Translations under genes and position numbers: made by a program | In this document: in pieces, positions 14,331-63,245 of the stretch | How positions within the stretch are numbered: the first letter of the stretch is position 1 | How the letters are laid out: every line of letters begins with the position of its first letter | Assembly: GCA_964613385.1 (NCBI GenBank) | Contig: CAZTGZ010000007.1 | Span: 30,941-94,940, forward strand | DNA from: an uncultured Chitinophagaceae bacterium | GTDB lineage: Bacteria > Bacteroidota > Bacteroidia > NS11-12g > UBA9320 | DNA: 64,000 bases | Reading direction: 5' to 3' | Notes under the pieces: generated by a model | Seen by the model: the letters and a program-made list of their open reading frames with translations, nothing else | What the model was told of the DNA's origin: nothing | Database searches by the model: none

Positions 14331-14362
14331 GACTTTGCGTATTTTTCTTTGATGTTAGTAGT

Positions 14363-18477: not shown

Positions 18478-19209
18478 TCAATTCTGTTCTTGGGCATATT
18501 TATATTTCAAATATCTGCTTAACGCGCTGAAATGACTGATATACAGGCCGTTAATACCCTCCAGTATTCCGAGTTGCCAAAAGTACCTCTTCAAAAACAT
18601 GGTGATATATGAAAGTTGTGGACGCCCCCACCAGTTGCCAACCACCTTACCGGCGGATAGTCTCGCGTATTTTTCGATGGTTTCGCGATGTTGTTTCAAG
18701 GTATCCAGTGTATAGTGGAGAATATCACCTTTTAATGGAATAATTTGCGTGTCTGGCGGTAGAATGAGCGATTCATGGACTTCTCCTTTCCAGTAGGCAT
18801 TTGAGGGAAACAATCTGATTTTCTTATCGGGGTACCAGTTGCAAAACCGAACAGGTTTGCCTCTATAGAAATTCAGTCGATTAAACTGATATGCGCCACT
18901 TAAATGATCAATATTTTTGATAGAGGATAGTGCTTCCGGTGATAGTCTCTCATCTGCATCCAGTGATAATACGTAGTCATAAGCGGCAAACGCATGAGCT
19001 TCATTTTTTGTATCCGCATAACCTTTCCACTCTATTTGATGTACGATAGCACCTGCGGACAGGGCAATTTCAACAGTATCATCCATACTGCCGGAGTCAA
19101 ATACGAGAATTTCATCGCAAATATCCCGCATACTTTTCAGGCATGCCGAAATCTTCAGGGCTTCATTTTTAGCTATAACTATACCGCTGATGCCCTTCTT
19201 TTTAATCAT
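18478..19209 (-). CDS. Glycosyltransferase family 2 (WaaE/KdtX-like)
   Basis: [37 protein letters not shown]. Overlaps the hutU stop by 8 nt. Confidence 0.85.
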
Positions 19210-20893: not shown

Positions 20894-20898
20894 ATCCG

Positions 20899-20906
20899 CA
20901 AAATTA
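20899..20906 (-). promoter_or_regulatory. -7 promoter box TAATTTTG for hutU
   Basis: Exact TAnnTTTG match, 5 nt upstream of the hutU ATG. Confidence 0.5.
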
Positions 20907-20947
20907 ATATTTGCCCGTGCAGGATGCGCTATCATTTTAGATTTTAG

Positions 20948-34738: not shown

Positions 34739-34851
34739 TGACAAATTGGCAATAGTTAACAACCGTCTGATGTCAATTTGTCTTGAAAACGTCTTGAAAA
34801 TCAGATTTCTAATGTCAAAATAGCCGTGTTATATTTTGGAATTCCGTTTGA
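34739..34851. promoter_or_regulatory. Repeated TGACAAA/TGTCA motifs and a GG-N10-GA element upstream of clpB
   Basis: TGACAAATTGGCA 34739, TGTCAATTTGTCT 34771, TGTCAAAAT 34813; direct repeat GTCTTGAAAA at 34780 and 34791; TGGAATTCCGTTTGA 34837-34851. Confidence 0.4.
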
Positions 34852-34868
34852 GTGGAAGGGGTAGCATT

Positions 34869-37469
34869 ATGAACTTAAATCAATTTACCATAAAATCTCA
34901 GGAGGCTATTCAAAAAGCCCAGGAATTAGCTGTTTCCGCCTCAAATGCATCCATAGAAACCGGACATTTATTGAAAGGCTTGCTTCTGACAGACGAAAAC
35001 GTGCTGACGTATGCCCTTAAAAAATGCAATGTGCAACCCGAGCGGCTGAATCAAGCCCTGGATGCAGTTTTGCAAAGTTACCCCAGACAAAGCGGAGGAT
35101 CGGTGTATTTGTCGTCACAAGCTAATCAGGTATTGGTCAAATCCCAGAGTTATCTGAAGTCATTTGGGGATGAGTTTGTGACCGTGGAGCACATCATGTT
35201 GGCCTTGCTTGAACAGGGAGATCAGATTTCTCAATTGTTGAAAGATTCCGGCGCAATCTTCAAGGATTTGAAGGAATCTTTTTTGTCTTTGAGAAGTGGG
35301 GGAAAGGCAAACTCGCAAAGCGCAGAGGCTCAATACAATGCCTTGAATAAGTATGCGAGAAATCTGAATGACCTGGCGAGACAGGGAAAGCTGGATCCGG
35401 TGATTGGAAGGGATGAGGAAATCAGGCGTGTACTTCAGATATTATCGAGAAGGACCAAAAATAATCCAATCCTCATAGGCGAACCCGGAGTCGGTAAAAC
35501 AGCCATTGCTGAGGGATTGGCACATAGAATTGTGAGTGGAGATGTTCCCGAAAATCTGAAAACCAAGCAGGTGTTTTCATTGGATATGGGGAGTCTGGTA
35601 GCCGGTGCGAAATACAAGGGTGAATTTGAAGAGCGATTAAAAGCAGTTGTCAAAGAGGTGATTGATGCTTCGGGCGAATTGGTTCTTTTTATTGATGAAA
35701 TACATACGTTGGTTGGTGCCGGTGGTAGTGGAGAAGGAGCTATGGATGCTGCCAACATTCTTAAACCGGCTTTGGCAAGGGGAGAGCTTAGAGCCATCGG
35801 GGCCACAACATTAGCCGAGTATCAGAAATATATAGAAAAGGATAAAGCCCTGGAGCGAAGGTTTCAGACTGTTTACGTGGAAGAACCTGATACCCAGGAT
35901 GCCATCTCTATTTTAAGGGGACTAAAAGAGCGATATGAGGTTCATCATAAAGTGAGAATTAAAGATGAAGCCATCATAGCGGCTGTAGAATTATCACAGC
36001 GTTATATTTCGGATCGGTTTTTACCGGACAAAGCCATAGATCTGGTGGATGAAGCCGCCGCGAAGTTGAGATTGGAAATTGATTCCGTGCCCGAAGAACT
36101 CGACGAATTACAACGCAAAATTATGCAATTGGAGATCGAACGTGAGGCGATAAAGCGGGAAAAAGACGACAAAAAACTCCAAAGTCTCAATGAACAGATA
36201 TCAAATTTGGGGGATGAAAGAAATGCCCTGAAATCAAGGTGGCAGGAAGAAAAGCAGATCGTGGATGCCATTCAGACCGCCAAAAAGGATATAGAAAATC
36301 TAAGATTCGAAGCCGATCAGGCTGAAAGGGCCGGTGATTATGGGAAGGTTGCTGAAATCAGGTATGGCAAAATGAAGGATGCTGAGGCGAATTTGCAACA
36401 GTTTCAAAATGAGTTGTTAAGCAGGCAAAATGGTCATTCACTGGTAAAAGAAGAGGTTGATGCCGAGGATATTGCTGAAATAGTGAGCCGATGGACCGGT
36501 GTTCCGGTGCAGAGTATGTTGCAGAGTGAACGGGAAAAATTGTTGCATTTAGAGGATGAATTGCACAAAAGAGTGATAGGTCAACAGGAAGCCATTGAAG
36601 CCATTTCAGATGCCATCAGAAGGAGCAGGGCTGGATTATCTGACCCTAAAAAGCCGATAGGGTCATTTATATTTTTGGGAACAACAGGTGTGGGTAAAAC
36701 GGAGTTGGCCAAGGCATTGGCAGAGTATCTGTTCGATCAGGAAAATGCCATGGTTAGGATAGATATGAGCGAATATCAGGAGAAACATACGGTTTCCAGA
36801 TTGATTGGAGCTCCTCCGGGATATGTTGGATATGATGAAGGCGGACAATTAACGGAAGCGGTACGACGCCGGCCGTATAGTGTGATCTTGTTGGATGAAA
36901 TTGAAAAGGCTCATCCGGATGTGTTTAACATATTGCTGCAGGTGTTGGATGATGGCAGGTTGACCGATAACAAGGGAAGAACCGCTAATTTCAAGAATAC
37001 CATTGTTATAATGACCAGCAATATTGGATCTCACTTAATTCAGGATCGATTGGAAGATTTGAGTGAAGATAGCAGATCAGAGGTAATTGCAAAAACCAAA
37101 GTGGAGGTTTTCGACTTACTAAAGAAGAGCATACGTCCCGAGTTTTTGAATCGGATTGACGAAGTAATTATGTTCACCCCATTGACTCGTGAGGAGATCA
37201 GAGATATAGTTTTGTTACAATTCGGTGGAATTCAGAAAATGTTAAAAGAGATGCAGGTAGACCTGAGCGCTACAGAAGAAGCCCTGGATTGGCTGGGAGA
37301 ATTGGGATATGATCCTCAATTTGGCGCGAGACCCTTGAAGCGGGTAATTCAAAAGGAGATTTTGAACAAATTGAGCAAGGATTTATTGGCTGGAGTGGTT
37401 GTAAAGGAAAAGCCCATATTGTTGAAACTTGACGGGGCGAGAAATTTTGTTTTTGAGCCTAAAGACTAA
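34869..37469 (+). CDS. clpB: Chaperone ClpB
   Basis: [13 protein letters not shown] start, two AAA modules, long coiled-coil middle domain with [19 protein letters not shown]. Confidence 0.97.
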
Positions 37470-43387: not shown

Positions 43388-44358
43388 TTTCCCACTCGTT
43401 GATAAATTTCCGCAATTTTCAGTGATATTTTATGTTCATCCAGATGCTCAACTAGCGATTTTGACTCATAATTTTCCCGGATTTGATCCAAAGTTGTTAT
43501 AATGGCATCGGCAATGGTATTAGGGTTTGTGTCCTTCAACAGCGTTGATCCTTTCAGGTTGGTCAGAAAATCGGGAACATCCCCGACCCTGGTGCTGATT
43601 ATTCGGGTATTTAATGCAAGGGCTTCCTTAATTACATTGGGAGATCCTTCGTGGCTGGATGTAAACAAAACAATATCTGCGGCTTTAATCCAAAGCAGCA
43701 TGGTTTTATGGTCAAAATTAAGTGCGTGATGAAATTGTAATTCGGGTACACTTTTTTTGGCCTGAAGCACACCTTCCAGCGCAATTCCGTACCTTTTTAC
43801 AGCTCTGGAAGGATGAGCAGGAAAGAAGATCATTTTTTGATTAACATCCATGTTTAATTGTCTTCTTGCTTCTTCTTTTGAAATTTTGGGTAATGTATCA
43901 AAGTTAAGTCCGGATGGAATGATATGAACCGGTTTCCTTGTGCGCAGAAGACTTTTGAGTTTTTCAGAAACTACAATGATTTCCGCTGCTTTTAACGACA
44001 TCAGTTTTGACATCAAAACAAGTATCTTACCTTTCAAACTATACGTAAAATTGGCGTTGGGAATACCTTGTAAATCACTACCTCTATAGGTAATAATTAA
44101 TGGCTTTCCCGACAAAATAGAGGGTATTGCTCCCTGTCCCCATTGGGCATGAATGATATCAATCTTTTGTGTTTTCAGGTATGATTTTAATTTAAAAGCT
44201 GTTATGAGATAATTGATTGGATTTGAACTTCCCCTGAAATGAAACACCTTCATGTCAAACCCTAAATTGCGCATGGATTCAACTTGTTTAACCAAAAACG
44301 GCACCGCATTGGGATGTTGCTGGTCAGGCCATTCCGGAGTCAGGATTAATATGATCAT
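43384..44358 (-). CDS. Glycosyltransferase family 4
   Basis: DIIHAQW, VKRY, SSHEGSPNVIKEALA, STRVGDV. Confidence 0.85.
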   Translation of the reverse strand: MIILILTPEWPDQQHPNAVPFLVKQVESMRNLGFDMKVFHFRGSSNPINYLITAFKLKSYLKTQKIDIIHAQWGQGAIPSILSGKPLIITYRGSDLQGIPNANFTYSLKGKILVLMSKLMSLKAAEIIVVSEKLKSLLRTRKPVHIIPSGLNFDTLPKISKEEARRQLNMDVNQKMIFFPAHPSRAVKRYGIALEGVLQAKKSVPELQFHHALNFDHKTMLLWIKAADIVLFTSSHEGSPNVIKEALALNTRIISTRVGDVPDFLTNLKGSTLLKDTNPNTIADAIITTLDQIRENYESKSLVEHLDEHKISLKIAEIYQRVGK

Positions 44359-45719
44359 ACGGCCGGATCAGGCTTGGTATTCAAAGGTTTATTCTGCATT
44401 TCAAGGGCAACTAAAATGAGCAAAATGGGTGTAACAAACGTCCTCATGGCGGCATGCAATGTAGATAATAAGGCAATCAGGAGCAGAGAAGCTTTCAGCG
44501 CTTTGACCATCCCAAATGCATGGCGATATCGCTCTATGCAAAATATAGCAATGAGCAGCATGATTAAAATACCGAATAAACCTTGTTCGGCTAATAATCT
44601 TGTAATTTCTGTATGCGAACTCAGACCCTTATATTGAATTCGTTTGAATTTAGCATTACCGATTCCAAGGCCTAAAATTGGGTTATCTAAAAATAGATCG
44701 AATTCTTCTTCAATCAGACCAAAGCGGTTTGAGGTGAGCGTGTTCACATCCTTTTCTCGGAACCCCTCTACGGTCGCATACGTTTCGCCCTGGTATCTCA
44801 GCAACAGATTACCACCTGTAATTTCGTTGGCAGCCAGTGCAGCCAGCACCATAAATCCCAAAATTAATAATGCCGGGAGCCATCTGGCTTTGCTCTTCTG
44901 AACTGCCATCATAAAAAACGTAGATATAACAATAGCCATAATACCGGCAATGATGCCACCTCTTGAAAACGTGATTAAACCCTGAAACAACATTAAAATG
45001 AGAATGGCTATGTCCAACAATCTGTAACCACTCAACATTTCTCCGGAAATAAGAAAGAAGAAGATGATAAATGCTCCCAATCCCATGACAGTGCTCACCT
45101 GATTTGAGCCAAAACCTCCTGAAGTTTCAAAGTTTGCGCCCAGTTGAAAATCAATTTCGGAGTAACTGGGTGTTTGAATGAAAATGTTCACCAAAACCAT
45201 GAATATCGGTAAAAAAAGTAACCTCAACAGGTGAAAAATCTGATCGTATGAAATTCTGTATTTATAAAATGATGCAATTCCCAGCGCCAAAGAAGTTGGT
45301 CCCAATGCGTTGAATACTAACGACTTGTAGTCAAGTCCTTCTATCCACCACAAAACAATACCGGGGACAATGGCCAACAATATCAGGAATCCTAATGTAC
45401 GCATTTTGCCTGTGGAAATGACCAGCAAGAGCAAAATGAAGTTCAAAAAGTACTTACTGTTCTCATAGGGGATGAAAGGAGAAGTACCGGACATTCTACA
45501 TATGATTTCCATTGCACCAAAATACACACATAGCTCTAAAACAAAATTTCGAAAATTCTTTTGAGATGAACCTGTATAGCGCAACCAACTGTACAAGAAG
45601 AATCCAATATACCAGCTGATGAGTAGATAAGGTGTGAATATAGAAATCATACTAAGAAGACCATGAAACAACATGATTCTCTTGAAATTGAATGCTGATT
45701 TTGGAAATAAGTACAACAA
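44355..45719 (-). CDS. O-antigen polymerase/ligase (Wzy_C) family membrane protein
   Basis: About 12 TM helices, GGFGSNQVS, TFSRGG, periplasmic loop with PILGLGIG and SHTEITRLLAEQG. Confidence 0.82.
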   Translation of the reverse strand: MLYLFPKSAFNFKRIMLFHGLLSMISIFTPYLLISWYIGFFLYSWLRYTGSSQKNFRNFVLELCVYFGAMEIICRMSGTSPFIPYENSKYFLNFILLLLVISTGKMRTLGFLILLAIVPGIVLWWIEGLDYKSLVFNALGPTSLALGIASFYKYRISYDQIFHLLRLLFLPIFMVLVNIFIQTPSYSEIDFQLGANFETSGGFGSNQVSTVMGLGAFIIFFFLISGEMLSGYRLLDIAILILMLFQGLITFSRGGIIAGIMAIVISTFFMMAVQKSKARWLPALLILGFMVLAALAANEITGGNLLLRYQGETYATVEGFREKDVNTLTSNRFGLIEEEFDLFLDNPILGLGIGNAKFKRIQYKGLSSHTEITRLLAEQGLFGILIMLLIAIFCIERYRHAFGMVKALKASLLLIALLSTLHAAMRTFVTPILLILVALEMQNKPLNTKPDPAV

Positions 45720-45720
45720 C

Positions 45721-46839
45721 TCAGCTAAAAATCTTGGTCTTTAACGAATGGAAATAATGTGAAAAAGTGAATAAGGGTGCCAGTTTTAAAATTTGCCGGG
45801 ATTTGGTCAGTAAAGTTTCCTCATTTTCATGTAAAGCCTTGTTGAGTATTTCGGCATAGGATTCACGAGATTTCCATAAAAACCCGTTTGAATCGTTTAT
45901 ATAATGCGGAATACTTGAAACTGAAGAAACGATTGGGATGGCGCCATAACAGGCTCCTTCGGCTACTACTTTTGGAAAACCCTCTGATTCAGAAGGCAAG
46001 AGTAAAAAATGACTTATAGCGAGGAGGGGGTGGATTTTTTGTCTGGGCAAATAGCCATGAAAAATACATGGAATTTTGCTGTCCTTGCTCATTTCTTCAT
46101 ATTTCTTTCTGTCCGGGCTATCACCAATAAAATGGATGCTCTCGATAAAACTTCGATCAAGATCCGGAATAGCTTCGAGTATGGTATCGACCCCTTTGGA
46201 ACGATCCAATCTACCGACAAAAATCAACGTATAAGGGGCAGAAAATTGTTTATTCGATCCGACAGTTTCGCCCTCACTTATTTCTTCATCAGTTAAACAA
46301 GGATTTTCGAATGAATAGCAATGTTTGGGTTGATCGGGCCACATTCCATTTAAGGTAACCCTGCATTTTGTAAGATTGCGGGAAAGCCACCATTGTTGAA
46401 AAGCATATCCCAATGGCGGATTCGGTTCTTTCCAGTTTCCGGCATATTTTACCCAAAAGGTATAAGGTCTTTTTTTAATACTGAACCAGGGTAACAGAAT
46501 ATTTGCCATACCTGTTGGAACTCTCAATTGAACATGTGTGGCTGTTTTGGTTTCCTTTTTAATGGGTTCCAGGATTTTCGGAATTTTTAAGAATACAGCC
46601 AGCTTTGACCATATGTCTGCTCCTCCAAATGGCGGAATCGGTACGAATCTTACGTTAGGGGCGGTATATGGTAAGCCACCACCAACACTAATTTCACTTT
46701 TATAGAAGCAGGCGATGTGCACCACTTCTTTCCAATTTTTTGAAATCTGATTAATTTCTTCGACGGTTGGTCCCCAGCCGGTAATTTGGTCACCTACCTG
46801 ATAGTGAGGTGTATGAGAGATAATTACGAGTTTATCCAT
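45721..46839 (-). CDS. Glycosyltransferase family 4
   Basis: FVGRLDRSKG and SESEGFPKVVAEG. Confidence 0.85.
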   Translation of the reverse strand: MDKLVIISHTPHYQVGDQITGWGPTVEEINQISKNWKEVVHIACFYKSEISVGGGLPYTAPNVRFVPIPPFGGADIWSKLAVFLKIPKILEPIKKETKTATHVQLRVPTGMANILLPWFSIKKRPYTFWVKYAGNWKEPNPPLGYAFQQWWLSRNLTKCRVTLNGMWPDQPKHCYSFENPCLTDEEISEGETVGSNKQFSAPYTLIFVGRLDRSKGVDTILEAIPDLDRSFIESIHFIGDSPDRKKYEEMSKDSKIPCIFHGYLPRQKIHPLLAISHFLLLPSESEGFPKVVAEGACYGAIPIVSSVSSIPHYINDSNGFLWKSRESYAEILNKALHENEETLLTKSRQILKLAPLFTFSHYFHSLKTKIFS

Positions 46840-46841
46840 AG

Positions 46842-47897
46842 TTAACCTTTGGTTCCGATTCTGAATTTAAGGTGATTGTTCCAAACCAGATTGAGATGTT
46901 TCCTGTATTCTTGCTGCAAGGCTCTTTGATATTGGTGTGTACTTAATATTCCTCTTTTCCAGGCCGAATAATTTTCTGTGGTGGAATTCTCAGGATTGGG
47001 ATGATATAAAGGGCTCACCTCCAGAATTATAGGTGCAGAATTTGTGTCATCATGCTCCCAGCAAACATCATAAGCTGCGGAAGTGAGACCCAGATTTTGA
47101 GTATACTTAACCATGGTCTCCTTCCATTGATCAGGGAATGTATTAAATGTAACTCCGGAGCCATAAACTGTTGAAGTAGGCCGCCATTCCGGCGCGAGAT
47201 TCCTGCGTGTATAGCTTGATACTACTTCGTTGCCAACCACAATCACCCGGATATCCATTTTCATAGGAACGATGCTTTGAACAATGATCTCCGGATTTTT
47301 TTCCAGGGCCCGACGGATTTTTTTGGAACTTGAAAATTCCATTTGGGCGTGAATGAGATGCAGCCCTCTGGATCCATAAGAATGAGGTTCTTTTAAGATG
47401 CAGGGATATTCCAGATCTTTTGAGACTTGGTCAATTTTGTTGCTTTCAATGATGGTTGTTTTTGGAAAAGGGATATCAAGAGCTGAAAATTGCCGGTACA
47501 TGTAAATTTTATTCTCCCAATATTTCAACTCTTTTGACTCGGGAAACACAAAATTGCCCTGATTTTCCAGCCGTTTAGCAAGATTGAAGATATGAACAGC
47601 GTAATTGTCAAACCGATATGGATCCAGTTTGAAATGAGGCATGAGCAGAACCGTTTTATGACGGATTTTACCAACACTCTTTCTTTTCCATACAATAGAA
47701 TAGGGGATATTGGAGGCTTGCATTTGTTCCACCAACGGAATAATTCTCAGGAATAAGTCCCCGAGATAATTATTCAGGAAAAGAGTCCTTTCCCAGTAAA
47801 TGATGACGTTAGCATTTCTTTTTGAATGCAAGAGACATTTCAATAAGTCCGGAAGCCTGAGACAAAAAATAATTGCGTATTTAAGTAAGGATTTCAT
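46842..47897 (-). CDS. RimK-type ATP-grasp ligase
   Basis: FPKTTII, ILKEPHSYGSRG, IVQSIV...DIRVIVVG, AAYDV, ILEVS. Confidence 0.82.
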   Translation of the reverse strand: MKSLLKYAIIFCLRLPDLLKCLLHSKRNANVIIYWERTLFLNNYLGDLFLRIIPLVEQMQASNIPYSIVWKRKSVGKIRHKTVLLMPHFKLDPYRFDNYAVHIFNLAKRLENQGNFVFPESKELKYWENKIYMYRQFSALDIPFPKTTIIESNKIDQVSKDLEYPCILKEPHSYGSRGLHLIHAQMEFSSSKKIRRALEKNPEIIVQSIVPMKMDIRVIVVGNEVVSSYTRRNLAPEWRPTSTVYGSGVTFNTFPDQWKETMVKYTQNLGLTSAAYDVCWEHDDTNSAPIILEVSPLYHPNPENSTTENYSAWKRGILSTHQYQRALQQEYRKHLNLVWNNHLKFRIGTKG

Positions 47898-48408
47898 TAT
47901 GTAAGGATTCTAGAAATTTCCAGTCAAAGACTTGTACATTAGGTAGTTGAGTTACTTTATTTCTGAAATCGACATTGATTTTTACATCTTCCAGCGTTCC
48001 ATATGAAAAATCTTCATATATGATGATTTTATTATAGCGATTAGATATCTGATATATATAGAACCATTTGTCCTCCATTCTTCGCACCAGAAAAAATTGT
48101 ATCAACATACCACGGAAATTTTCGCGCAACCATTTAATGGTAGTTCTCCACAATAGGAAAGATCTGGCACTTATAAAAAATACATCCGACTGATTATCGG
48201 CTTCCAGAACTATATTTCTCATCGTAGCATTGATGGGGAATTTTCCATGTTTGATGCCGTTTTTCTGATATAATCTGGAGTGAGTCAGGGTATTGTCAAT
48301 ATCAAATATGGTTGCGACATCTCCCTTATTCTTAAGTGTTAGCAGGAAAAGAGTCTGATGGTAGGTTTTTACCAACAACCAGATAACATTTAAAATGAAA
48401 TATTTCAA
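47881..48408 (-). CDS. HAD-superfamily phosphatase
   Basis: Motif I FDIDNTL, motif II FFISAR, acidic motif IV YEDF. Confidence 0.72.
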   Translation of the reverse strand: MKYFILNVIWLLVKTYHQTLFLLTLKNKGDVATIFDIDNTLTHSRLYQKNGIKHGKFPINATMRNIVLEADNQSDVFFISARSFLLWRTTIKWLRENFRGMLIQFFLVRRMEDKWFYIYQISNRYNKIIIYEDFSYGTLEDVKINVDFRNKVTQLPNVQVFDWKFLESLHNEILT

Positions 48409-49550
48409 TGAGACAAGACTTTTTGCAAAGCCCGAATGATGAGCTCGTTTTCAACTTCGCTTCTACAGGCAATTCTCAGAAATTCGCCGGATAGCCCAAT
48501 TTTGTCGTAGCAGGTTCGAACATATACTCCGTGGTGAAACAACAACTCGAAAAATATGTCGTCTGCTGTTTTTCCATTCAATATTTCAACCAGAAAAAAG
48601 TTAGCATTACCTGGATATACTTTAATTCCTTCCAATTGACTTAATTCTGTACTGAATTTCTGCAATTCGTTGTTGTATCGAAGTCTCTCCTTGCGGTACA
48701 ATTTCTGAAATTCCGGATTCAGGTATAAATCGAAAAAGTACTCTCCAAAGCCATTAATATTCCAAAGGAAATTTTTGGGATTTATGAGTTCAATATTTTT
48801 TTCAGAAGAAATCAGATATCCTGCTCTGATACCGGCAATCCCGAAATCCTTGGACATGCTTTTCACGATGACCAAATTGGGAAAGTCATGTATCAGTTTA
48901 TAATAGATATTTTGATCAAGTTCGTCATCTTTTAACGCGAAATGAGAGAAACTTTCATCCAGAATTATGGTGTCGAGATGGGTTAATTGTGAAATCAAAC
49001 TGATAAGATCCGTATATGGAAGGAAGGTACCATTGGGATTGTTCGGACTGATGAGACAGAGATGATTCGCATGACTATTTTGAACTGCTTCTAATATCGA
49101 ATTCGTATTGAAAAGGTAATTTTCTTCCTTATTCAGGTTTAAATGGGACACTTTTATTTCTGAAGAAGCAAATTCGTAATAAGGGCTAAAAGTCGGGATT
49201 GGCAGTAGGAGCGTTCCTTTGGTGATCAGGTTGTCAAAAATTGCTTTTATGCCTTCAGTAGCTCCGTTGCATACAAAAACATTGTTTTCCGTTACACCGG
49301 CAAATTTGGCAATTTGTATGGCCAGCGTCTGATTTTGACTGGGGTAAAATTCGAGAATGTCGCGTATTTTCTTCTTGTTGAGGGTTAAGTCCCTATCCAA
49401 TTCACTTAAAAAAAGTTCCGTGGCATATGGATTTGACAAAAAGCAGGCGTCAACTTCGATTTGCAAATCCGGGAAGTTGCGCTTCAGTTCAAATAGACTC
49501 GGAGAATGGGAGCCCGTTTTTTGCTTTAATTCTCTATATAATTCTATCAT
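48405..49550 (-). CDS. PLP-dependent class I/II enzyme (HisC/CobD-like aminotransferase or phospho-amino-acid decarboxylase)
   Basis: CNGATE, PTFSPY, SPNNPNG, LDESF, KSMSKDFGIAGIRAGY, ANFFLV, LRIACR. Confidence 0.88.
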   Translation of the reverse strand: MIELYRELKQKTGSHSPSLFELKRNFPDLQIEVDACFLSNPYATELFLSELDRDLTLNKKKIRDILEFYPSQNQTLAIQIAKFAGVTENNVFVCNGATEGIKAIFDNLITKGTLLLPIPTFSPYYEFASSEIKVSHLNLNKEENYLFNTNSILEAVQNSHANHLCLISPNNPNGTFLPYTDLISLISQLTHLDTIILDESFSHFALKDDELDQNIYYKLIHDFPNLVIVKSMSKDFGIAGIRAGYLISSEKNIELINPKNFLWNINGFGEYFFDLYLNPEFQKLYRKERLRYNNELQKFSTELSQLEGIKVYPGNANFFLVEILNGKTADDIFFELLFHHGVYVRTCYDKIGLSGEFLRIACRSEVENELIIRALQKVLSH

Positions 49551-50637
49551 AATCTAAAATAATATTAGACCAATGGTGTTTCTTAGCCCAGGTAATGGCG
49601 TTTTCCGGTTTAAAATATTCTGTATTGAGGGCCTTTTTCAGTGCATCTCTAATCTCGTTTGCGTTATTGCCATCGACCAGAAAGCCGCTCTTTCCGTCGT
49701 CCACTGCATCTTCGATACCGCAACCCCGTGCTCCAATCACAGGGAGTCCCAGAAAATTGGCTTCCAAAGCCACAATTCCGAATCCCTCAACGTCCCCATC
49801 GCTTTGGTTTTCACTAAGTAAGATGAAAACATCGGCATTTCGGTATTCAAATTTCAAATCTTCATGTTTTTCAACTAAACCTGTGAATTTGATATGTTTT
49901 TCAACGTTTAGCTTCTTCGCCAGAACTTTTAATTCACGCTGTAAAGTGGGCAAGCCTACAATGTTGTACTTAAGATTTGGGAATTTCAGAATGAGATGCG
50001 GTAATGCCTTAATTACGCGATGTTGTCCTTTTCTGCGGGTCATGTTCCCAACCGTTAGCAAAACGGGGAATTCCTCTGTAGTTCTTTTCGTTTTTGTCTC
50101 CGGATTCCAGTTGTCCGTGAAGTTTATCCCATTTGGGATTATTTGGCAATGTACAGATACCAGCTTTAGTACATTTTCTTTTGCGAATCGAGAAACGCAG
50201 ACCACATTATGTACTTTCTTAAGGCGTCGTTTTATCCATTGCTTAAAGATAACTCTACCTCTTAAAGGTTCATAACCATGGATAATGGTTGTTGTTTTAA
50301 ATGACTTAAGATTTAAAACAAAGCCTCCTAAGATTATCTCATTTCTACCGGATAATACCAAAGAATCGAAATGCAGTGTATTTAAATAAAATAGTATTTC
50401 AAAGAATCGAATAAATGGGATCCGGAATCGGATTCTGACAATTCGGAATTTACAATCTTGATTAAACTTTTGGATAGTACCATGATCTGCATAATCCTGT
50501 CGGCATAACACGGTAACATCATACCCGATTTTTTGAAGATTATCGGCAAGACTCCAGGCATGCATACCAATTCCTCCTGGTCCCGGTGGGAACTCAGGCG
50601 TGAAAATCAGAACTTTTTTTGACCGGGTACTGTTCAC
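49534..50637 (-). CDS. Glycosyltransferase family 4
   Basis: EFPPGPGGI, VGNMTRRKG, EGFGIVALEAN. Confidence 0.88.
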   Translation of the reverse strand: MNSTRSKKVLIFTPEFPPGPGGIGMHAWSLADNLQKIGYDVTVLCRQDYADHGTIQKFNQDCKFRIVRIRFRIPFIRFFEILFYLNTLHFDSLVLSGRNEIILGGFVLNLKSFKTTTIIHGYEPLRGRVIFKQWIKRRLKKVHNVVCVSRFAKENVLKLVSVHCQIIPNGINFTDNWNPETKTKRTTEEFPVLLTVGNMTRRKGQHRVIKALPHLILKFPNLKYNIVGLPTLQRELKVLAKKLNVEKHIKFTGLVEKHEDLKFEYRNADVFILLSENQSDGDVEGFGIVALEANFLGLPVIGARGCGIEDAVDDGKSGFLVDGNNANEIRDALKKALNTEYFKPENAITWAKKHHWSNIILDYDRII

Positions 50638-58180: not shown

Positions 58181-58986
58181 GCTTTTTGGCCGATGAAGAG
58201 CCATTCATAATCCGGAATACCCAAGGTCTTTTCCGAATCGTATTTTTTTAAGTCAACAACTTGAGTTTGAGCGAAAACTTTCTTCATACTTGATTCGAAA
58301 TCACTCCCATAGTCCCGGTAGTGGCCATTGTAATTTAAATTGTTGAAAAAAATGGTTTTCTTTCGCTTGAAATCTCCGGGGATGGTAATGAGAACCTGAC
58401 CTCCGGGTTTTAGGACCTTCTGCATTTCTTGCAAAGCTTTCAAATCATCCGGCACATGTTCTAAAACATGGTTGCACAATATGAGGTCAAAAGAGTTTTC
58501 AGGTAAAGTCAGGTTTTGTATATCCTGATTGGGGAAATCTACATCTTCAAGAAAGAAATCTGTGGTTTTATAGGTCAGATTGTTTTGACGGAACAAATCG
58601 TAGAAAACAGGTTCAGGGGCGAAATGAAGAACTGAAAAACCGGGTTTTACATGGGCAATGGCTTCTTTATAATAATAATACAAAGCGCGATGTCTGGGCC
58701 GGGAGGAACAATGCGGACAAGCATAGTTCAAATTAAAACGCATTCGATTTGATAAATGAACAAATCTACTGTTGTGTTGACCACACAAAGGACAATAGTT
58801 TTTACCTGCCTTGTTTAAAATGGCACTTGCCTGAATCCGATTCATCAATTCGGTCATCAAAAATCTGATCGCCATTTTTAATTCTCCCTGCTTTATTTTA
58901 CCAAATGCCGAGGAGAAAATTGCTTTTACGGATCTGAATTTATAAGGTTGGAAAGCGGCAGGATTACTAAACGTTGTATTTGCCAT
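58177..58986 (-). CDS. Class I SAM-dependent methyltransferase with N-terminal CxxC...CxxC
   Basis: CPLCG...CPHCSSRPRHR, VLHFAPE, NHVLEHV, LKPGG, HYRDYG. Confidence 0.85.
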   Translation of the reverse strand: MANTTFSNPAAFQPYKFRSVKAIFSSAFGKIKQGELKMAIRFLMTELMNRIQASAILNKAGKNYCPLCGQHNSRFVHLSNRMRFNLNYACPHCSSRPRHRALYYYYKEAIAHVKPGFSVLHFAPEPVFYDLFRQNNLTYKTTDFFLEDVDFPNQDIQNLTLPENSFDLILCNHVLEHVPDDLKALQEMQKVLKPGGQVLITIPGDFKRKKTIFFNNLNYNGHYRDYGSDFESSMKKVFAQTQVVDLKKYDSEKTLGIPDYEWLFIGQKA

Positions 58987-60322
58987 CGGCGCGATATAAA
59001 TTTAAGGTTAGCAGCATAGACACTGAATGTGAAAAGAAAACAGGGTCAGATTCTCTAAATTTTTGATAAAATTTCATGTTGATCTCTTTTGGTATTTTAA
59101 GGTCACCAATAGGATTGAACAAATGCTCTTTTAGAAGCATATCATTATCGTCTCCATTAAACTGGAGCTCCCAATTCCGTTGAGTGGGTGTTTTTTTTAA
59201 CTTACTCCATAATCGGTACGGAAGATTGTATGGAAAGCGGTTTAAATGGTAGTTGTTTACATTGAATGGCCGTTGGCTTTGCCAGGTAATGGAGGCCAGA
59301 TCGGGCGCATATTTTTTAAGGTATTCGATTTGAATCTGACGTGCGCTTAACCATTTTTCAGGAATCCGGCATATCAAATTACATAGTTGATTGTGATAAT
59401 ATGGCACGCTTATTGGCAAGGCGGCTGCATAAAACCTCAGGTTGGTACTGGTCCAACGTGGGGCCCAATGTGTACTTTTAAATGCTCTTATGCGGGCATT
59501 GGCAGAATTCTCTATGGGAATTTCCGCCAATAAATCGCGCAATCTTTCCTCGAGATAATCACAGAATTCTCCCGGTAATTCCCAGAATTTCCATAAGGAA
59601 TCAGCGATCTCTAAACCACCTTTTTTTACTACTTTTTTCATCAGCACCTTAACCTGGTCTTCAAAACCAAGACTATCCGGTACACCCATATCATCGAATA
59701 AAACATCGCCCCAGTGCCCAAGTAGAAACCGATTCCCAAAGTTCTGGTATTGCGTTAAAAAAGCGGCTTGCCTGGGATGGGTAAATTCAGAATAGCAATC
59801 ATTGATTTCTGCGAATTTGTTCAGCGACTTCCATAGATACCCGGATGGCACTTCCAGAGACTGGTACTTAAATCCACAATATTTTGCAATTTTTTCACCG
59901 TAATGGGTTTCATCATGTCCCAGGTAAAATTTATAGCTGAAAGTAAAAGGTTTTTTTCCTGTGTGTCGGGCAGCTGCGGCTAAAGTTCTGCTGTCTAAAC
60001 CACCTGAAAGTGGCAGTATCATTCCATGTTCAGGTTCTGCTGAAATTATTTCATGAAATTGTTCAGCGAACAATTCAATGGATTGGGAAAGGCTGATGTC
60101 TTCAGGTTGATATCGCCACGGATTGTCCGTTGATTGAACGGTTGATACCGAGCCGTTTTCAATATTAAATTCGGCATTCGGTTTAACTACTTTAAGACCT
60201 TGATGGTAAGTCTCATCATCCAAAAAAAAGCCCAAAGCAGCATAAACACAAATCGCTTTGTAGTCAAACCCATCTTTTCGACCATAGAATAGCGGATTTG
60301 AAGGAATAATGGGGTTTTTCAT
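58967..60322 (-). CDS. Asparagine-synthase-like protein (adenylation domain, no Ntn Cys1)
   Basis: LPLSGGLDSR PP-loop and GHWGDVL; the N-terminus lacks the MCG glutaminase start. Confidence 0.8.
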   Translation of the reverse strand: MKNPIIPSNPLFYGRKDGFDYKAICVYAALGFFLDDETYHQGLKVVKPNAEFNIENGSVSTVQSTDNPWRYQPEDISLSQSIELFAEQFHEIISAEPEHGMILPLSGGLDSRTLAAAARHTGKKPFTFSYKFYLGHDETHYGEKIAKYCGFKYQSLEVPSGYLWKSLNKFAEINDCYSEFTHPRQAAFLTQYQNFGNRFLLGHWGDVLFDDMGVPDSLGFEDQVKVLMKKVVKKGGLEIADSLWKFWELPGEFCDYLEERLRDLLAEIPIENSANARIRAFKSTHWAPRWTSTNLRFYAAALPISVPYYHNQLCNLICRIPEKWLSARQIQIEYLKKYAPDLASITWQSQRPFNVNNYHLNRFPYNLPYRLWSKLKKTPTQRNWELQFNGDDNDMLLKEHLFNPIGDLKIPKEINMKFYQKFRESDPVFFSHSVSMLLTLNLYRADGKYNV

Positions 60323-61434
60323 CCTTTTAACGTGCGGATATAAAATTGCTCGTGTTTTTCAACCTCTTTTTCTATTGAAAAATGTGTTTTGGCAAATTCG
60401 CTCAATGCATTCCCCAGTTGTTCATTTTCAAGAATGGGCCGATTCATATAAAAATTCAGTTTTTCGGCCAATTGATCGGCATTTCCTGCTTCAAAAAGCA
60501 GTTCAGGATAATTGTTTAATTGGTCGGTAATTCCGCTAATGGCACTTCCAATCGTAACTTTCCCTGAAGCCATGGCTTCCAATAGAGCCACCGGTGATCC
60601 TTCTCCTCTGTATTTGTTACCTTCCAATGAAGGAAGAACAAATATTTCAGCTTGCTTCAGATAATCCTGCACATTAAGTTGTTTGCCCAAAAAACGAATT
60701 TTGGTGCTTAAATGATTCGACTCAGTCCATTGAATCAACTGCTTTCCGTAATCATTGTCGCAATCTCCCAAAATCCATAATTTCCAGGAAGGGTTGGAGG
60801 CTTCGTATTTTTTAAACGCATGTAAGAGTATTTCTACACCTTTAACCGGCACCAGATTGGCAACACAAATAATGATGCGTTCTTCTTTATGCTCGAACGG
60901 CCAATTTTTAAATTGTTCAATCACCACCCCTCTTCCAATGCATTCAACATTGGGGTGATTTTTGTAAAAAGTTTCCAGCATTTTGGAATTTTGGACGATG
61001 ATTCCTTTCGCCAGCCGTCCTCTGAGTTTCCATCCATTTTTAGAACTACCGCCCCAGTTCATATTTTTCTTGGTAAAGATCCAGGGTATTCCTGCCAATT
61101 TCGCTGCAAGTGGTTCAGAGTAATCGGCACCATAGTGAAAGGAGTGAATAATATCGGGAGAAATTTTTTTTAAAAACCTCGCACATTTCAAGCTTTTAAT
61201 AATTCCTGAAACATAGGGTTTCATGGGATGAAAATAAGGATAGAGATGCACGGGAATTCCGCTGTTCACAACTGTTTTAAAGAATTCTCCCTTATTGTGA
61301 ACGCAGAGAATTTCGGCTTCAAACTTTTGAGGATCCAATCTTTGAGCTAAGTTGAGTAATGCTTTACCCGACCCGGCTGTGTCGAAGTTGGGAATGGTAT
61401 AAAGTACCTTTATCTTTTGGTGTTTTCCAGCCAT
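60319..61434 (-). CDS. Glycosyltransferase family 4
   Basis: TIPNFDTAGSG, DIIHSF, VANLVPVKG, EGSPVALLEAMASG. Start set at ATG 61434. Confidence 0.88.
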   Translation of the reverse strand: MAGKHQKIKVLYTIPNFDTAGSGKALLNLAQRLDPQKFEAEILCVHNKGEFFKTVVNSGIPVHLYPYFHPMKPYVSGIIKSLKCARFLKKISPDIIHSFHYGADYSEPLAAKLAGIPWIFTKKNMNWGGSSKNGWKLRGRLAKGIIVQNSKMLETFYKNHPNVECIGRGVVIEQFKNWPFEHKEERIIICVANLVPVKGVEILLHAFKKYEASNPSWKLWILGDCDNDYGKQLIQWTESNHLSTKIRFLGKQLNVQDYLKQAEIFVLPSLEGNKYRGEGSPVALLEAMASGKVTIGSAISGITDQLNNYPELLFEAGNADQLAEKLNFYMNRPILENEQLGNALSEFAKTHFSIEKEVEKHEQFYIRTLKG

Positions 61435-63245
61435 GATACTAAGGCAAACAAAGAGAAAATTGCCCATTTTCGGTCTTTTCCCATTCGGTGTTCAGAAAAC
61501 AATCGATGTATTTCGCGAGCCTGAATGTTTAGTTTTTGTAAAAAGTGCTGCTGAGTAAGAAGTTCTTCCATGGTATGACCTGCTGCAGAACGAATCCACT
61601 CGGCCAGGGGAATGCTAAATCCCCGTTTTCTTTCATCGGGGTGAAAATCATTGAATTTTCGGGAAAGTAGTTTTTTGAGTAGACCTTTTCTCTGACCATT
61701 TTCATAGCTCAGGGATCCGGGAAGCTGACAACTGAATTCAATAAATTCCTTTTTTAGAAACGGTACCCGCACCTCTAAGGAAGCTTCCATACTGGCGAGA
61801 TCAACTTTTCGCAATGTTTTTTGCATCATCCCTTCAAATTCCGCCTTGCGCATGTTTTGCATCAATACATCGGTGTCATTTGTATTGGGATATGCATACG
61901 TGGTATAATTCTCCGGCAATTTAATTTCCTTCAGGTACGGAAATACTTTGTGAATATCGTTTTTCTTAAATCTGGAATGAAGACTTTGGTGGGCCTTGGC
62001 TTGTTCCTTAAATAATACCAAACTGTTCATTTTGGGTATCCCGGTGTATTTGTTGAATCCGTAAAGGCCTTTTTTTACCAGGGGAGGATAGTTCTGCCAT
62101 TGGATATTCCTGAGCAGGCTATGGAAACGGTTATAGCCGTAAAACAATTCATCTCCGCCATCTCCGGATAGTGCTACCTTAACTTTTTCGGCTGCCAATG
62201 CCGATACCAAATGGGTTGGAACTATGCTGAAATCTCCGATCGGTTCGTGAAACATTTTTTGCCATTGGAACAACAGATTTAAGGAACTTTCCGAGTCCAT
62301 TTTCCGGAGGGAGTGGTCGGTTTGCAGAAATTTTGCAAAAAAAGCGGCATCGTCGGATTCGTCATGAATCTCAGAATCGGATCCAATGGTAAATGTTTTT
62401 AAGTTCCGGATGTTGCGGGAAGCGATTTCTGCAATAATCGGAGAATCGACACCTCCGGATAGGAAGGCTCCGATTTCAACATCACTGAGTAACTCATCTT
62501 TTACGGCTTTTTCCAGGGCCTGATCCAATCGCTCCATCGCTTCGTTTTTTGAAATCACTGAATTTTGATGGGAGGGGAATTCCCAATATTTAGTCTCCAG
62601 TATTTTCCCATCTATCGATACGGTCAGATAACATCCGGGACTTACTTGTGCTGTATGCTCAATTAACGCAAAAGGTGGTGGCAGGAAATGTTGTTCTAAG
62701 TACAAGAGCAGAACATCAGGTTGTATCGGTTCATGTATGAATGTGGGGTGACAAACCACCTGATCATATTGACTGGCAGCGACCAGGGTCCCTTTGTGAT
62801 ATCCATAAAAAAGCGGCTTTATTCCGGCAAAATCCCTGGCCAGCGTGGTGTTCTGATTTTTGTAATCGTAGATGCATAATGCAAACATTCCGTCCAGGGC
62901 TTTAATGGTTCGGTCAATGCCCCAGGACTCCAGGCATGCACAAATGGTTTCTGAGTCGCTGTGTCCGCGAAATCTTTGATCTGGAAGCTGTTTTCGCAAT
63001 TCCAGATGATTGTATATTTCGCCATTAAACAACAACAGAAAATTCCCATTTCTGCTGCGCATGGGTTGGCTTCCGGCCTCTGAGAGGTCTAAAATGGATA
63101 ACCGGTTAAAACCAGCCTGAATATGCTCTTCCCGAACAATTTTCTGATCATCGGGTCCGCGCTTTGCAGACTTATCCAGCAATTCCTTAAATTTCAATGG
63201 ATTGCAGGGTTCAGAAAGGCTAAATTCGAAAAGAAATCCGCACAT
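61410..63245 (-). CDS. asnB: Asparagine synthase (glutamine-hydrolysing)-type amidotransferase
   Basis: N-terminal MCG, RGPD, RLSILDL, FNGEIYN, LSGGVDS, ALSGDGGDELF, EVRVPFL. Confidence 0.92.
   Translation of the reverse strand: MCGFLFEFSLSEPCNPLKFKELLDKSAKRGPDDQKIVREEHIQAGFNRLSILDLSEAGSQPMRSRNGNFLLLFNGEIYNHLELRKQLPDQRFRGHSDSETICACLESWGIDRTIKALDGMFALCIYDYKNQNTTLARDFAGIKPLFYGYHKGTLVAASQYDQVVCHPTFIHEPIQPDVLLLYLEQHFLPPPFALIEHTAQVSPGCYLTVSIDGKILETKYWEFPSHQNSVISKNEAMERLDQALEKAVKDELLSDVEIGAFLSGGVDSPIIAEIASRNIRNLKTFTIGSDSEIHDESDDAAFFAKFLQTDHSLRKMDSESSLNLLFQWQKMFHEPIGDFSIVPTHLVSALAAEKVKVALSGDGGDELFYGYNRFHSLLRNIQWQNYPPLVKKGLYGFNKYTGIPKMNSLVLFKEQAKAHQSLHSRFKKNDIHKVFPYLKEIKLPENYTTYAYPNTNDTDVLMQNMRKAEFEGMMQKTLRKVDLASMEASLEVRVPFLKKEFIEFSCQLPGSLSYENGQRKGLLKKLLSRKFNDFHPDERKRGFSIPLAEWIRSAAGHTMEELLTQQHFLQKLNIQAREIHRLFSEHRMGKDRKWAIFSLFALVSWLENTKR

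Follow-up and report, generated by a model that had tools for sequence, protein, structure and literature searches.

A putative three-gene cassette for amino-alcohol amide decoration in a Bacteroidota polysaccharide locus

What could three overlapping genes, coding for a PLP enzyme, a HAD phosphohydrolase, and an ATP-grasp ligase, be doing in the middle of a polysaccharide locus? According to the original prediction, they would follow the capsule amidation logic of Campylobacter jejuni with an ATP-grasp ligase of another subfamily, thereby placing a serinol, ethanolamine, or aminopropanol amide on a uronate of a Bacteroidota glycan. The C. jejuni chemistry is documented (PMC11800397): in strain NCTC 11168, Cj1436 is an L-Ser-P decarboxylase, Cj1437 a DHAP transaminase, the C-terminal domain of Cj1438 (Cj1438C) an ATP-dependent amidoligase, and Cj1435 a HAD phosphatase. 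In the 64-kb stretch of DNA analyzed here as a whole, and referred to as the window, the trio and its neighbors are arranged as follows.

49534-50637, minus strand: upstream GT4 glycosyltransferase, context gene (Pfam Glycos_transf_1, 127 bits)
48405-49550, minus strand: PLP enzyme gene, 381-aa ORF of the SMUL_1544/Cj1436 clade, predicted L-serine-O-phosphate decarboxylase
47881-48408, minus strand: HAD phosphohydrolase gene, 175-aa ORF with a TTG start, small and capless, predicted phosphatase acting on a phosphorylated amide
46842-47897, minus strand: ATP-grasp ligase gene, 351-aa ORF, RimK/LysX/ArgX-like, predicted amidoligase joining an amine phosphate and a glycan carboxylate
45721-46839, minus strand: downstream GT4 glycosyltransferase, context gene (Pfam Glycos_transf_1, 81 bits)
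44355-45719, minus strand: Wzy-type polymerase, context gene (Pfam Wzy_C, 47 bits)

An overlapping trio within a Wzy-type operon

The three overlapping genes were found exactly as predicted, on the minus strand of a Wzy-type operon. The letters TTGA belong both to the PLP stop and to the start of the HAD gene, a 4-nt overlap, and the HAD and ATP-grasp genes have 17 nt in common. An overlap of 17 nt also joins the upstream GT4 gene to the PLP start, the two genes being translationally coupled, and the downstream GT4 gene begins 3 nt past the ATP-grasp stop. On the plus strand, the ORF listing contains no competing ORF of at least 80 aa within 46842-49550. The Wzy-type polymerase points to a Wzx/Wzy-type repeat-unit pathway, and the operon continues beyond base 64000 of the window. 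Besides, two AsnB-like amidotransferases are a hint that carboxylates are present. As regards a CDP-ethanolamine route, a domain search of the 58 window ORFs of at least 150 aa retrieved no nucleotidyltransferase domain, in agreement with the earlier remark that no cytidylyltransferase is visible, and this route was therefore rejected.

The clade of the PLP enzyme and the amine it would supply

The PLP enzyme has an Aminotran_1_2 domain (Pfam, 118 bits), and its best NCBIfam matches are CobD (TIGR01140, 162.1 bits) and HisC (TIGR01141, 152.5 bits), although both scores miss the curated cut-offs of 290.55 and 276.55 bits, respectively. The HisC/CobD-like label of the original prediction thus captures the best-scoring models but not the actual clade, which is that of SMUL_1544 and Cj1436. 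The enzyme aligns end to end (residues 4-379) with PDB 6oux_A at 310.8 bits (E 1.2e-91, about 45% identity), compared to only 85 bits with the true CobD structure 1lc5, and an NJ tree places it inside the SMUL_1544/Cj1436 clade, on a long branch and away from CobD. From its identical molecule name, we take PDB 6OUX to be SMUL_1544 of Sulfurospirillum multivorans, a protein reportedly shown by Keller et al. in 2016/2019 to be an L-Ser-P decarboxylase and which also takes Thr-P in vitro. SMUL_1544, the closest solved structure, has the N-terminal signature and the catalytic residues in common with the window enzyme, but it serves the norcobamide nucleotide loop whereas the window enzyme lies in a glycan locus. 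The molecule name of 6OUX is the product name of SMUL_1544 in PMC7755780. When the 6OUX sequence was compared to species-representative genomes, among which its source strain does not figure, the best match reached 52% identity.

The comparison with C. jejuni was made through a Campylobacter locus (L009, from a Campylobacter sp. MAG) whose homologues of Cj1438 and Cj1435 are at 61% and 60% identity; its positional orthologues stood in for Cj1436 and Cj1437, Cj1438C having no 100% C. jejuni match in the genome search. The window enzyme is 47% identical (335 bits) to the protein at the Cj1436 position and 21% identical (47 bits) to that at the Cj1437 position, both being positional orthologues and not the assayed proteins. 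These values speak against the idea that the window enzyme would be a Cj1437-like transaminase, converting dihydroxyacetone phosphate to serinol phosphate for a final serinol amide. The class I/II aminotransferase fold is indeed common to these enzymes, with HisC at 152.5 bits against 162 for CobD, and a Cj1437-type gene is paired with the window-type ATP-grasp family in one locus (L236), so that this ligase family may accept serinol phosphate. Nevertheless, given the much closer match to the Cj1436-position protein and the decarboxylase-clade signature at the N-terminus, a serinol product is scarcely credible. As judged from its sequence, the enzyme belongs to the Ser-P decarboxylase clade and is not of the CobD, HisC, or Cj1437 transaminase type. 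A role in histidine biosynthesis was rejected since the HisC score is under the cut-off and the gene lies within a glycan locus. CobD, an L-threonine-O-3-phosphate decarboxylase, is of the same PLP fold type and catalyzes a comparable reaction, also with a phosphorylated amino acid as substrate, but it forms a clade apart and the window locus has no cobamide genes nearby; with no cob genes in the window, a CobD/cobamide role was likewise rejected.

The PLP enzyme retains 90 of the 100 family columns conserved at 95% or more, including K234, D198, N170, R242, R345, R359, and R363, and it keeps the N-terminal clade signature H15-S-P-S and D34-ACFLSNPYAT. It deviates at the ten others, four of them 100%-invariant, the substitutions of its sub-lineage at residues otherwise invariant in the SMUL_1544 family being N to S168, Y to F176, E to K207, and G to N260. 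S168 and F176 occur in the window enzyme and its closest relatives, P0019 and P0020, whereas 49 other family members have N/Y, and CobD has T/L. These unusual substitutions make Thr-P or another substrate possible: the divergent enzyme could decarboxylate L-threonine-O-phosphate to (R)-1-aminopropan-2-ol phosphate, leading to an aminopropanol amide with an unchanged cassette logic. The top rank of CobD among the NCBIfam models and the in vitro use of Thr-P by SMUL_1544 go in the same direction. Yet the enzyme is much closer to Ser-P decarboxylases (311 versus 85 bits), and a dedicated kinase of the PduX/BluE type would be needed while none is found in the cassette or among the annotated ORFs of the window; nor does a Thr kinase travel with the cassette in related loci, which makes aminopropanol less likely. 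Overall, the use of Thr-P is considered unlikely. At the family level, the methyltransferases flanking the PLP gene in some loci and the SerK/SbnI-like gene adjoining it in another (L067) point to Ser-P and ethanolamine phosphate (EtN-P). In the light of its membership of the Ser-P decarboxylase clade and not of the Cj1437 type, ethanolamine phosphate is the likeliest predicted product and is favored over serinol phosphate. The initial choice between serinol, ethanolamine, and aminopropanol is thereby narrowed to a preference for ethanolamine, the two others being disfavored.

The ATP-grasp ligase and the HAD phosphohydrolase

The ATP-grasp protein matches Pfam RimK (38 bits) and NCBIfam rimK_fam (TIGR00768, 61.6 bits, under the 143.4 cut-off). 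Its AF2 model (pLDDT 84, pTM 0.85) retrieves ArgX 3vpb as best Foldseek match (E 7.9e-17), followed by RimK, LysX, and Ddl, with a probability of 1.00 for ArgX, RimK, and LysX. With these three ligases it has in common the fold (E 1e-14 to 8e-17) and the ATP- and Mg-binding motifs; profile alignment with RimK locates K169-E-x-HS-x-GS-x-G (ATP-binding), the Q207-E hinge, D215-x-R217, and D277, and K169, D277, and E293 are invariant across the family. RimK, LysX, and ArgX ligate carboxylates and amines via an acyl phosphate, and the same is proposed for the window protein. However, the latter is only 16-19% identical to them, carries an additional hydrophobic helix at its N-terminus, and adjoins PLP and HAD genes in glycan loci instead of ribosomal protein S6 or LysW carrier genes. 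Its family is small and separate from RimK proper, a search of 1.84 billion representatives giving 149 clusters at E<=1e-30. As the original prediction stated, the subfamily is also different from that of C. jejuni: Cj1438C is TupA-like (PF14305, 130 bits by Pfam) and fused to a glycosyltransferase whereas the window ligase is free-standing, and no homology between the two was detectable by BLASTP (E 0.11) or hhalign (probability 1.0%). From its fold and motifs, the protein is predicted to be an ATP-dependent amidoligase that would link an amine phosphate to a glycan carboxylate.

The HAD protein carries the DxDxT motif announced by the original prediction (D36-I-D-N-T40), although its matches in the domain libraries are all sub-threshold (LNS2, 16.5 bits). 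A word-indexed search for homologues gave only two relatives, and an alignment was built instead from the equivalent ORF of related loci (A1, 29 sequences). All four HAD motifs are conserved in A1, with D36, D38, N39, T40, R82, T90, K114, and D133 invariant; in the window protein, motifs I-IV correspond to D36/D38/T40, S/T before R82, K114, and E132-D133, motif IV being E-D here versus D-D in most A1 members. The A1 profile matches the class C acid phosphatase 2i33 (HAD IIIB, E 1.9e-7) and lipin/Ned1, and Pfam assigns LNS2_PITM to 12 and Acid_phosphat_B to 11 of the 29 members. The AF2 model, derived from three sequences, is of low confidence (pLDDT 55); a strand is predicted ahead of every motif, as would be expected, and the N-terminus is again a hydrophobic helix. 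The window protein is divergent, with 17-26% identity to 27 of the 28 other A1 sequences and 56% to its close relative P0139. While Cj1435 is of the PF12710 type, no homology to it was detected by BLASTP (E 0.92) or hhalign (probability 0.3%), only the superfamily motifs being common. By these sequence comparisons, the HAD protein is of a small IIIB/LNS2-like type non-orthologous to Cj1435, a point absent from the original prediction, and it is predicted to be a phosphatase acting on the phosphorylated amide. Compared to the C. jejuni set, only the PLP enzyme then appears homologous, the ligase and the phosphatase being non-orthologous replacements as far as their sequences tell.

A portable cassette, its probable acceptor, and its possible significance

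Co-occurrence of the trio elsewhere had been set beforehand as an observation on which the prediction could fail, and it was strongly borne out. All six loci of metagenomic ATP-grasp homologues contain PLP, HAD, and ATP-grasp genes in the same order, and, of the 46 loci collected with 6OUX as query, 28 have a window-type ATP-grasp gene downstream of the PLP gene. Pedobacter yulinensis YL28-9 and Flavobacterium dankookense DSM 25687 are among the strains that carry the cassette. From the ATP-grasp side, 66 species-level genomes, mostly Bacteroidota, could be evaluated: a PLP gene of the amine-phosphate-forming type is nearby in 61, directly upstream of the ATP-grasp gene, in the canonical order, in 53, and rearranged in 7 more, and the HAD gene is adjacent in 53 of the 66 loci. 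In six loci (L169, L172, L195, L199, L206, and L208), no HAD gene separates adjacent PLP and ATP-grasp genes, and in L218 the two are separated by a 0.6-kb gap without ORF; dephosphorylation may therefore not be obligatory. No other operon gene, including any glycosyltransferase or dehydrogenase, travels with the trio in related loci, neither flanking GT4 gene is conserved with it, and every cassette locus examined is a polysaccharide locus. Together with the Wzy-type operon of the window, this agrees with the predicted Bacteroidota glycan setting.

In addition, the partners are exchanged between the two systems. A Cj1435-type HAD accompanies a window-type ATP-grasp in L068, L069, and L074, L236 combines Cj1437-type PLP, Cj1435-type HAD, and window-type ATP-grasp genes, TupA-type cassettes have the same PLP clade in L009, L013, L052, and L066, and the partner types are interleaved across the PLP tree. 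Such mixed cassettes argue for functional equivalence of the window-type cassette with the C. jejuni pathway. They also bear on the view that there is no single pathway, the PLP enzyme supplying ethanolamine phosphate for phosphoethanolamine/phosphocholine substituents, lipids, or a cobamide, the ATP-grasp protein separately adding an amino acid such as glutamate in the manner of RimK, and the HAD protein having some unrelated function. This PLP clade is used otherwise elsewhere, in norcobamide synthesis in Sulfurospirillum and in methyltransferase-flanked loci, and uronic-acid amides with amino acids are common in O-antigens (PMC3210612). Nevertheless, the strict synteny and translational coupling of the trio across dozens of unrelated glycan loci, the swapping with C. 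jejuni-type HAD and PLP partners, and the window's lack of cob genes and of any gene for a cytidylyltransferase or phosphotransferase render this view highly improbable. Clade, motifs, co-occurrence, and module swapping thus support the predicted logic of PLP enzyme, ATP-grasp amidoligase, and HAD.

Taken together, the whole is best explained, with a probability of about 0.6, by a self-contained and portable glycan-decoration cassette whose products make ethanolamine phosphate, couple it to an acidic sugar through an amide bond, and strip the phosphate. The PLP enzyme would first produce ethanolamine phosphate by decarboxylating O-phospho-L-serine, which cells normally form on the way to serine. 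With ATP, the ATP-grasp ligase would then activate a carboxylate of the lipid-linked repeat unit by forming an acyl phosphate, which the amino group of ethanolamine phosphate would attack to give the amide, and the small HAD phosphatase would finally remove the phosphate to leave an N-(2-hydroxyethyl) amide, the order of ligation and dephosphorylation being assumed from C. jejuni. The hydrophobic helices of the HAD and ATP-grasp proteins would fit enzymes that work on the cytoplasmic side of the membrane, flipping and polymerization by Wzy coming afterwards.

By analogy, the acceptor is most probably the C6 carboxylate of a hexuronic acid. The reasoning has to proceed by analogy since tblastn (E<1e-8) retrieved no homologue of UDP-glucose/GlcNAc 6-dehydrogenase in the 64-kb window, beyond whose base 64000 the operon runs, and such UDP-sugar 6-dehydrogenases were found in the fetched flanks of only 4 of the 66 related loci and about 3 of the 31 in another set. 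The "uronamide" part of the original prediction is therefore not supported so far. These data, the very different glycan loci without a common glycosyltransferase in which the cassette occurs, and the amino-acid or protein carboxylates used by its nearest structural relatives ArgX, LysX, and RimK would suit another acceptor, for which the candidates are nonulosonic/ulosonic acids, pyruvyl ketals, lactyl ethers, and amino-acid or hydroxy-acid substituents of the repeat unit. However, when a dehydrogenase is near, it immediately adjoins the cassette (L001 and L003), the window operon has no pyruvyltransferase or nonulosonate synthase domain, and the dehydrogenase may be encoded outside the window, either past base 64000 or at another place in the genome. 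The sole characterized precedent uses glucuronate (PMC11800397), and, overall, a non-uronate acceptor is rather doubtful.

The proposed pathway resembles that of C. jejuni in its amine-phosphate synthesis by a PLP enzyme, amide ligation by an ATP-grasp enzyme, and predicted phosphate removal by a HAD, as well as in its surface-polysaccharide locus, its Cj1436-type PLP homology, and the natural hybrids mixing both systems. In contrast, the window system is Wzy-dependent while C. jejuni relies on an ABC-transporter/Kps pathway, and the window cassette has no second PLP paralogue and no UDP-Glc dehydrogenase in view in the window.

Capping acidic sugars with an amide takes away negative charge and alters their antigenicity, their properties as phage receptors, and how susceptible they are to polysaccharide lyases. 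To our knowledge, the enzymology of this amidation has been described in C. jejuni alone. All three cassette proteins of the window lie on long branches and, given these branches and the CobD-like S168/F176 of the PLP enzyme, one may tentatively envisage, at low odds, that a widespread and uncharacterized Bacteroidota route to glycan amino-alcohol amides includes a window sub-lineage installing an aminopropanol amide or a non-uronate amide unseen in any glycan. If the proposed pathway is true, the same chemistry would have been assembled at least twice, with unrelated ligases and phosphatases around a common Ser-P decarboxylase, and it would be frequent among environmental Bacteroidota, for instance in Pedobacter, Flavobacterium, Chitinophagales, Cyclobacteriaceae, and Saprospiraceae. 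The trio would then provide a three-gene marker for predicting glycan amino-alcohol amides from sequence, and its ligase, a new ATP-grasp amidoligase that stands free of other domains, could serve to modify glycans chemoenzymatically.

The coupled trio and its host operon

ORF listing of the window recovers the three overlapping genes of the original prediction, on the minus strand and at exactly the coordinates it had given:

48405-49550, minus strand: PLP enzyme gene, ORF of 381 aa
47881-48408, minus strand: HAD gene, ORF of 175 aa with a TTG start
46842-47897, minus strand: ATP-grasp gene, ORF of 351 aa

The nucleotides TTGA are common to the PLP stop and the HAD start, the HAD and ATP-grasp genes overlap by 17 nt, the upstream GT4 gene runs 17 nt into the start of the PLP gene, and the downstream GT4 gene begins 3 nt past the ATP-grasp stop. 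Taken together, these junctions show tight translational coupling. The host is a single long minus-strand polysaccharide operon, extending from ~37.4 kb to beyond 64 kb, that comprises many GT4/GT2 genes, a GT47-like gene, a Wzy polymerase, an initiating phosphoglycosyl transferase, a GFO/IDH/MocA oxidoreductase, a DegT aminotransferase, a GNAT, two SDR epimerase/dehydratases, two methyltransferases and two AsnB-like amidotransferases:

58967-60322 and 61410-63245, same operon: AsnB-like genes, one of full length that includes a glutamine amidotransferase domain and one with the synthetase domain only

AsnB-like enzymes turn sugar carboxylates into primary amides in other systems, and the glycan may therefore bear more than one kind of amide. 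No nucleotidyltransferase domain is present in any window ORF of at least 150 aa, in agreement with the original prediction, which saw no cytidylyltransferase.

The other half of the window carries housekeeping genes, including the gliding or type IX secretion genes GldM/GldL (12681-14935), two Clp-family AAA+ chaperones (6090-8609 and 34836-37469; a ClpC-like one with a UVR motif, and ClpB), and the histidine utilisation pair urocanase and histidine ammonia-lyase (19202-20935 and 24792-26267). Since ClpB shows at most ~75% identity to the Sphingobacteriales, Mucilaginibacter, Pedobacter and Chitinophaga genomes, the DNA belongs to a Bacteroidota member without a close species representative.

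The PLP enzyme and its likely product

The PLP enzyme had been called HisC/CobD-like, and CobD (162 bits) and HisC (152.5 bits) do rank top among the library models, but each far under its cut-off. Among solved structures it is 6oux_A, annotated 'Threonine phosphate decarboxylase-like enzyme', that stands out (310.8 bits, E 1.2e-91, residues 4-379 aligned), compared to 85 bits for the genuine CobD structure 1lc5 and at most 79 bits for HisC structures. In Sulfurospirillum, the product of SMUL_1544 bears a name identical to the molecule name of 6OUX (PMC7755780). In the PLP tree, enzymes with different partner types are interleaved in a single compact clade, distant from CobD. Keller et al. reportedly found, in 2016 and 2019, that SMUL_1544 decarboxylates L-serine-O-phosphate to ethanolamine phosphate for norcobamide synthesis.

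A second point of comparison is C. jejuni capsule amidation, in which Cj1437 converts DHAP to (S)-serinol-P by transamination, Cj1436 converts L-Ser-P to ethanolamine-P by decarboxylation, the C-terminal domain of Cj1438 (Cj1438C) joins one or the other amine phosphate to glucuronate as an amide once the sugar is in the chain, and Cj1435 removes the phosphate (PMC11800397). As this capsule type is missing from the C. jejuni species representative, the comparison used a Campylobacter sp. contig (L009) whose gene order matches that of C. jejuni: Ugd, Glf, a Cj1438 homologue (61% identity to Cj1438C), a HisC-like PLP gene, a 6OUX-like PLP gene and a Cj1435 homologue (60%). In this MAG, the gene in the Cj1437 position (L009:4631-5530) has at its end a run of G that disrupts the reading frame and resembles a phase-variable homopolymeric tract. 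The window PLP enzyme is 47% identical to the protein in the Cj1436 position (335 bits) and 21% identical to that in the Cj1437 position (47 bits), which makes serinol phosphate an unlikely product on sequence grounds.

Across 49 family members, the window enzyme retains 90 of the 100 columns with at least 95% conservation, including the PLP lysine K234, D198, N170, four arginines and the N-terminal signature H-S-P-S / DACFLSNPYAT. Four positions depart from the clade: S168, F176, K207 and N260, present in the window enzyme and in its closest relatives P0019 (99% identity) and P0020 (83%), replace N, Y, E and G that are invariant in 49 other clade members, CobD having T and L at the columns of S168 and F176.

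The genomic context of the clade was also considered. Its PLP gene is flanked by two class-I SAM methyltransferases in Nitrospinaceae and Desulfobacteraceae MAGs (L041:2343-5005 and L044:5081-7845, respectively), while one such methyltransferase was seen in a Parabeggiatoa MAG (L038:5938-7799); these loci resemble a bacterial pathway in which Ser-P would be turned, by way of ethanolamine-P, into phosphocholine. A third cassette type combines the PLP decarboxylase with a PaaK/F390-synthetase-like adenylate-forming ligase of ~430 aa and a PF12710 HAD (L045:4652-7769; also L033, L043, L049, L051 and L067:5944-9514), and in L067 a 142-aa homologue of the serine kinases SerK/SbnI lies between the PLP and ligase genes. 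The methyltransferase-flanked loci and this SerK/SbnI neighbour point to Ser-P and ethanolamine-P as the compounds handled by the clade. Together with the kinship to 6OUX and Cj1436 and the retained signature, they make ethanolamine phosphate the most likely product, with the caveat of the S168, F176, K207 and N260 substitutions. The predicted choice of serinol, ethanolamine or aminopropanol is thereby narrowed to a probable ethanolamine.

Putative ligase, phosphatase and acceptor

The ATP-grasp protein scores 38 bits against the Pfam model RimK and 61.6 bits against rimK_fam, whose cut-off is 143.4. Its AF2 model, built on 17 homologues, is confident (pLDDT 84, pTM 0.85) and best matches ArgX (3vpb, E 7.9e-17), RimK, LysX and D-Ala-D-Ala ligases, all carboxylate-amine ligases acting via an acyl phosphate. 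Alignment with RimK matches the ATP-binding lysine segment, the hinge and the Mg-ligand positions, none of which varies within the family. As anticipated, the subfamily differs from that of the C. jejuni ligase: Cj1438C is a TupA-like ATP-grasp (PF14305), to which no similarity could be detected (BLASTP E 0.11; hhalign probability 1%). An exhaustive profile search of 1.84 billion representatives delimits 149 clusters at E<=1e-30, followed by a steep fall to generic ATP-grasp matches, so that by its sequences the window-type ligase is a small, distinct family.

The window HAD alone gives sub-threshold matches throughout, and in nearly all related loci an equivalent small ORF separates the PLP gene from the ATP-grasp gene. 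The predicted DxDxT motif is borne out in a 29-member alignment, where D36-x-D38-N-T40, S/T-x-R82, K114 and D133 are invariant and correspond to the four HAD motifs. The family profile matches the class C acid phosphatase 2i33 (E 1.9e-7) and lipin/Ned1 phosphatidate phosphatases, individual members matching LNS2_PITM (12/29) or Acid_phosphat_B (11/29); neither sequence nor profile comparison relates the family to the PF12710 HAD Cj1435. A hydrophobic helix is predicted at the start of both the HAD, in a weak structure model, and the ATP-grasp protein, and both could thus be membrane-associated.

Regarding the acceptor, no UDP-sugar 6-dehydrogenase was found within the 64-kb window by tblastn with three queries, the operon running past the window end, and such a gene lies at most 6 kb away in only 4 of 66 related loci; it is immediately adjacent to the cassette in two loci, L001 and L003. 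Given this scarcity, a uronate acceptor, and hence a uronamide product, is proposed by analogy. The predicted C. jejuni-like logic is largely right, with ethanolamine as the probable amine and a uronate as the putative acceptor. Ligation is assumed to precede dephosphorylation, and the site of amidation, a lipid-linked unit or a nucleotide sugar, would likewise be a matter of assumption.

Co-occurrence and module swapping

The trio was expected to recur in other glycan loci, and it does. With sampling from the ATP-grasp side, the order PLP, small ORF, ATP-grasp is found in 6/6 independent metagenomic loci, all of them glycan loci. The ATP-grasp alignment was further sampled in 80 species genomes, 66 of which had enough upstream sequence to be evaluated: a 6OUX-type PLP gene lies directly upstream in 53, is rearranged within the locus in 7 more and is absent from the fetched flank in 5, the last locus (L236, Flavipsychrobacter) having a Cj1437-type PLP gene and a Cj1435-type HAD. 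An adjacent HAD is present in 53/66 (small type in 49, Cj1435 type in 4), whereas in 6/66 the PLP gene abuts the ATP-grasp gene with no HAD between them; in a seventh HAD-less locus (L218), a 0.6-kb ORF-free gap separates the two genes. Among the culturable strains that carry the cassette are Pedobacter yulinensis YL28-9, P. steynii DSM 19110, P. caeni DSM 16990 and Flavobacterium dankookense DSM 25687.

Beyond the trio, no gene of the window operon is shared among the 31 cassette loci compared, in which recurrent neighbours are generic (GT4 in 20, initiating transferase in 10, SDR in 8, AsnB-like in 8). Individual loci carry other genes. One (L007:381-3926) has phosphonate-type genes just upstream of the cassette, namely a PEP mutase with a fused cytidylyltransferase-like domain, a TPP enzyme resembling phosphonopyruvate decarboxylase, and an Fe-ADH; another (L001:1-2027) starts with an Fe-ADH and a LIC12162-family gene. 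In L006:9126-13185 and L008:9096-13154, an FkbH-like/ACP/MaoC dehydratase/SDR cassette directly follows the trio, which suggests a second, acyl-type decoration.

Sampling from the PLP side, the 6OUX sequence fetched 46 loci, in 28 of which the PLP gene is followed downstream by a window-type ATP-grasp; in the others, it is accompanied by Cj1438C/Cj1435-type partners, by a PaaK/F390-synthetase-like ligase and PF12710 HAD, or by methyltransferases. Hybrids also occur, three loci (L068, L069, L074) joining a Cj1435-type HAD to a window-type ATP-grasp. In the cultured Flavipsychrobacter stenotrophus (L236:4005-6891), a HisC-like PLP gene, 36% identical to the Cj1437-position protein, stands together with a Cj1435-type HAD and a window-type ATP-grasp, a set that is probably a serinol version of the cassette. 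In an Ohtaekwangia MAG (L195:3927-6894), one PLP gene is flanked by TupA-like and RimK-like ATP-grasps.

Interleaved partner types and hybrids are the pattern expected if one amine-phosphate step pairs with interchangeable ligase and phosphatase modules, and this swapping most strongly supports the argument that the cassette would do the same job as Cj1436, Cj1438C and Cj1435. The cassette, of which no description was found in the open literature searched, has a PLP step homologous to that of C. jejuni, whereas its ligase and phosphatase are non-orthologous. Judged from these sequence relationships, it is a new variant relative to the C. jejuni system, and one that is widespread in Bacteroidota.
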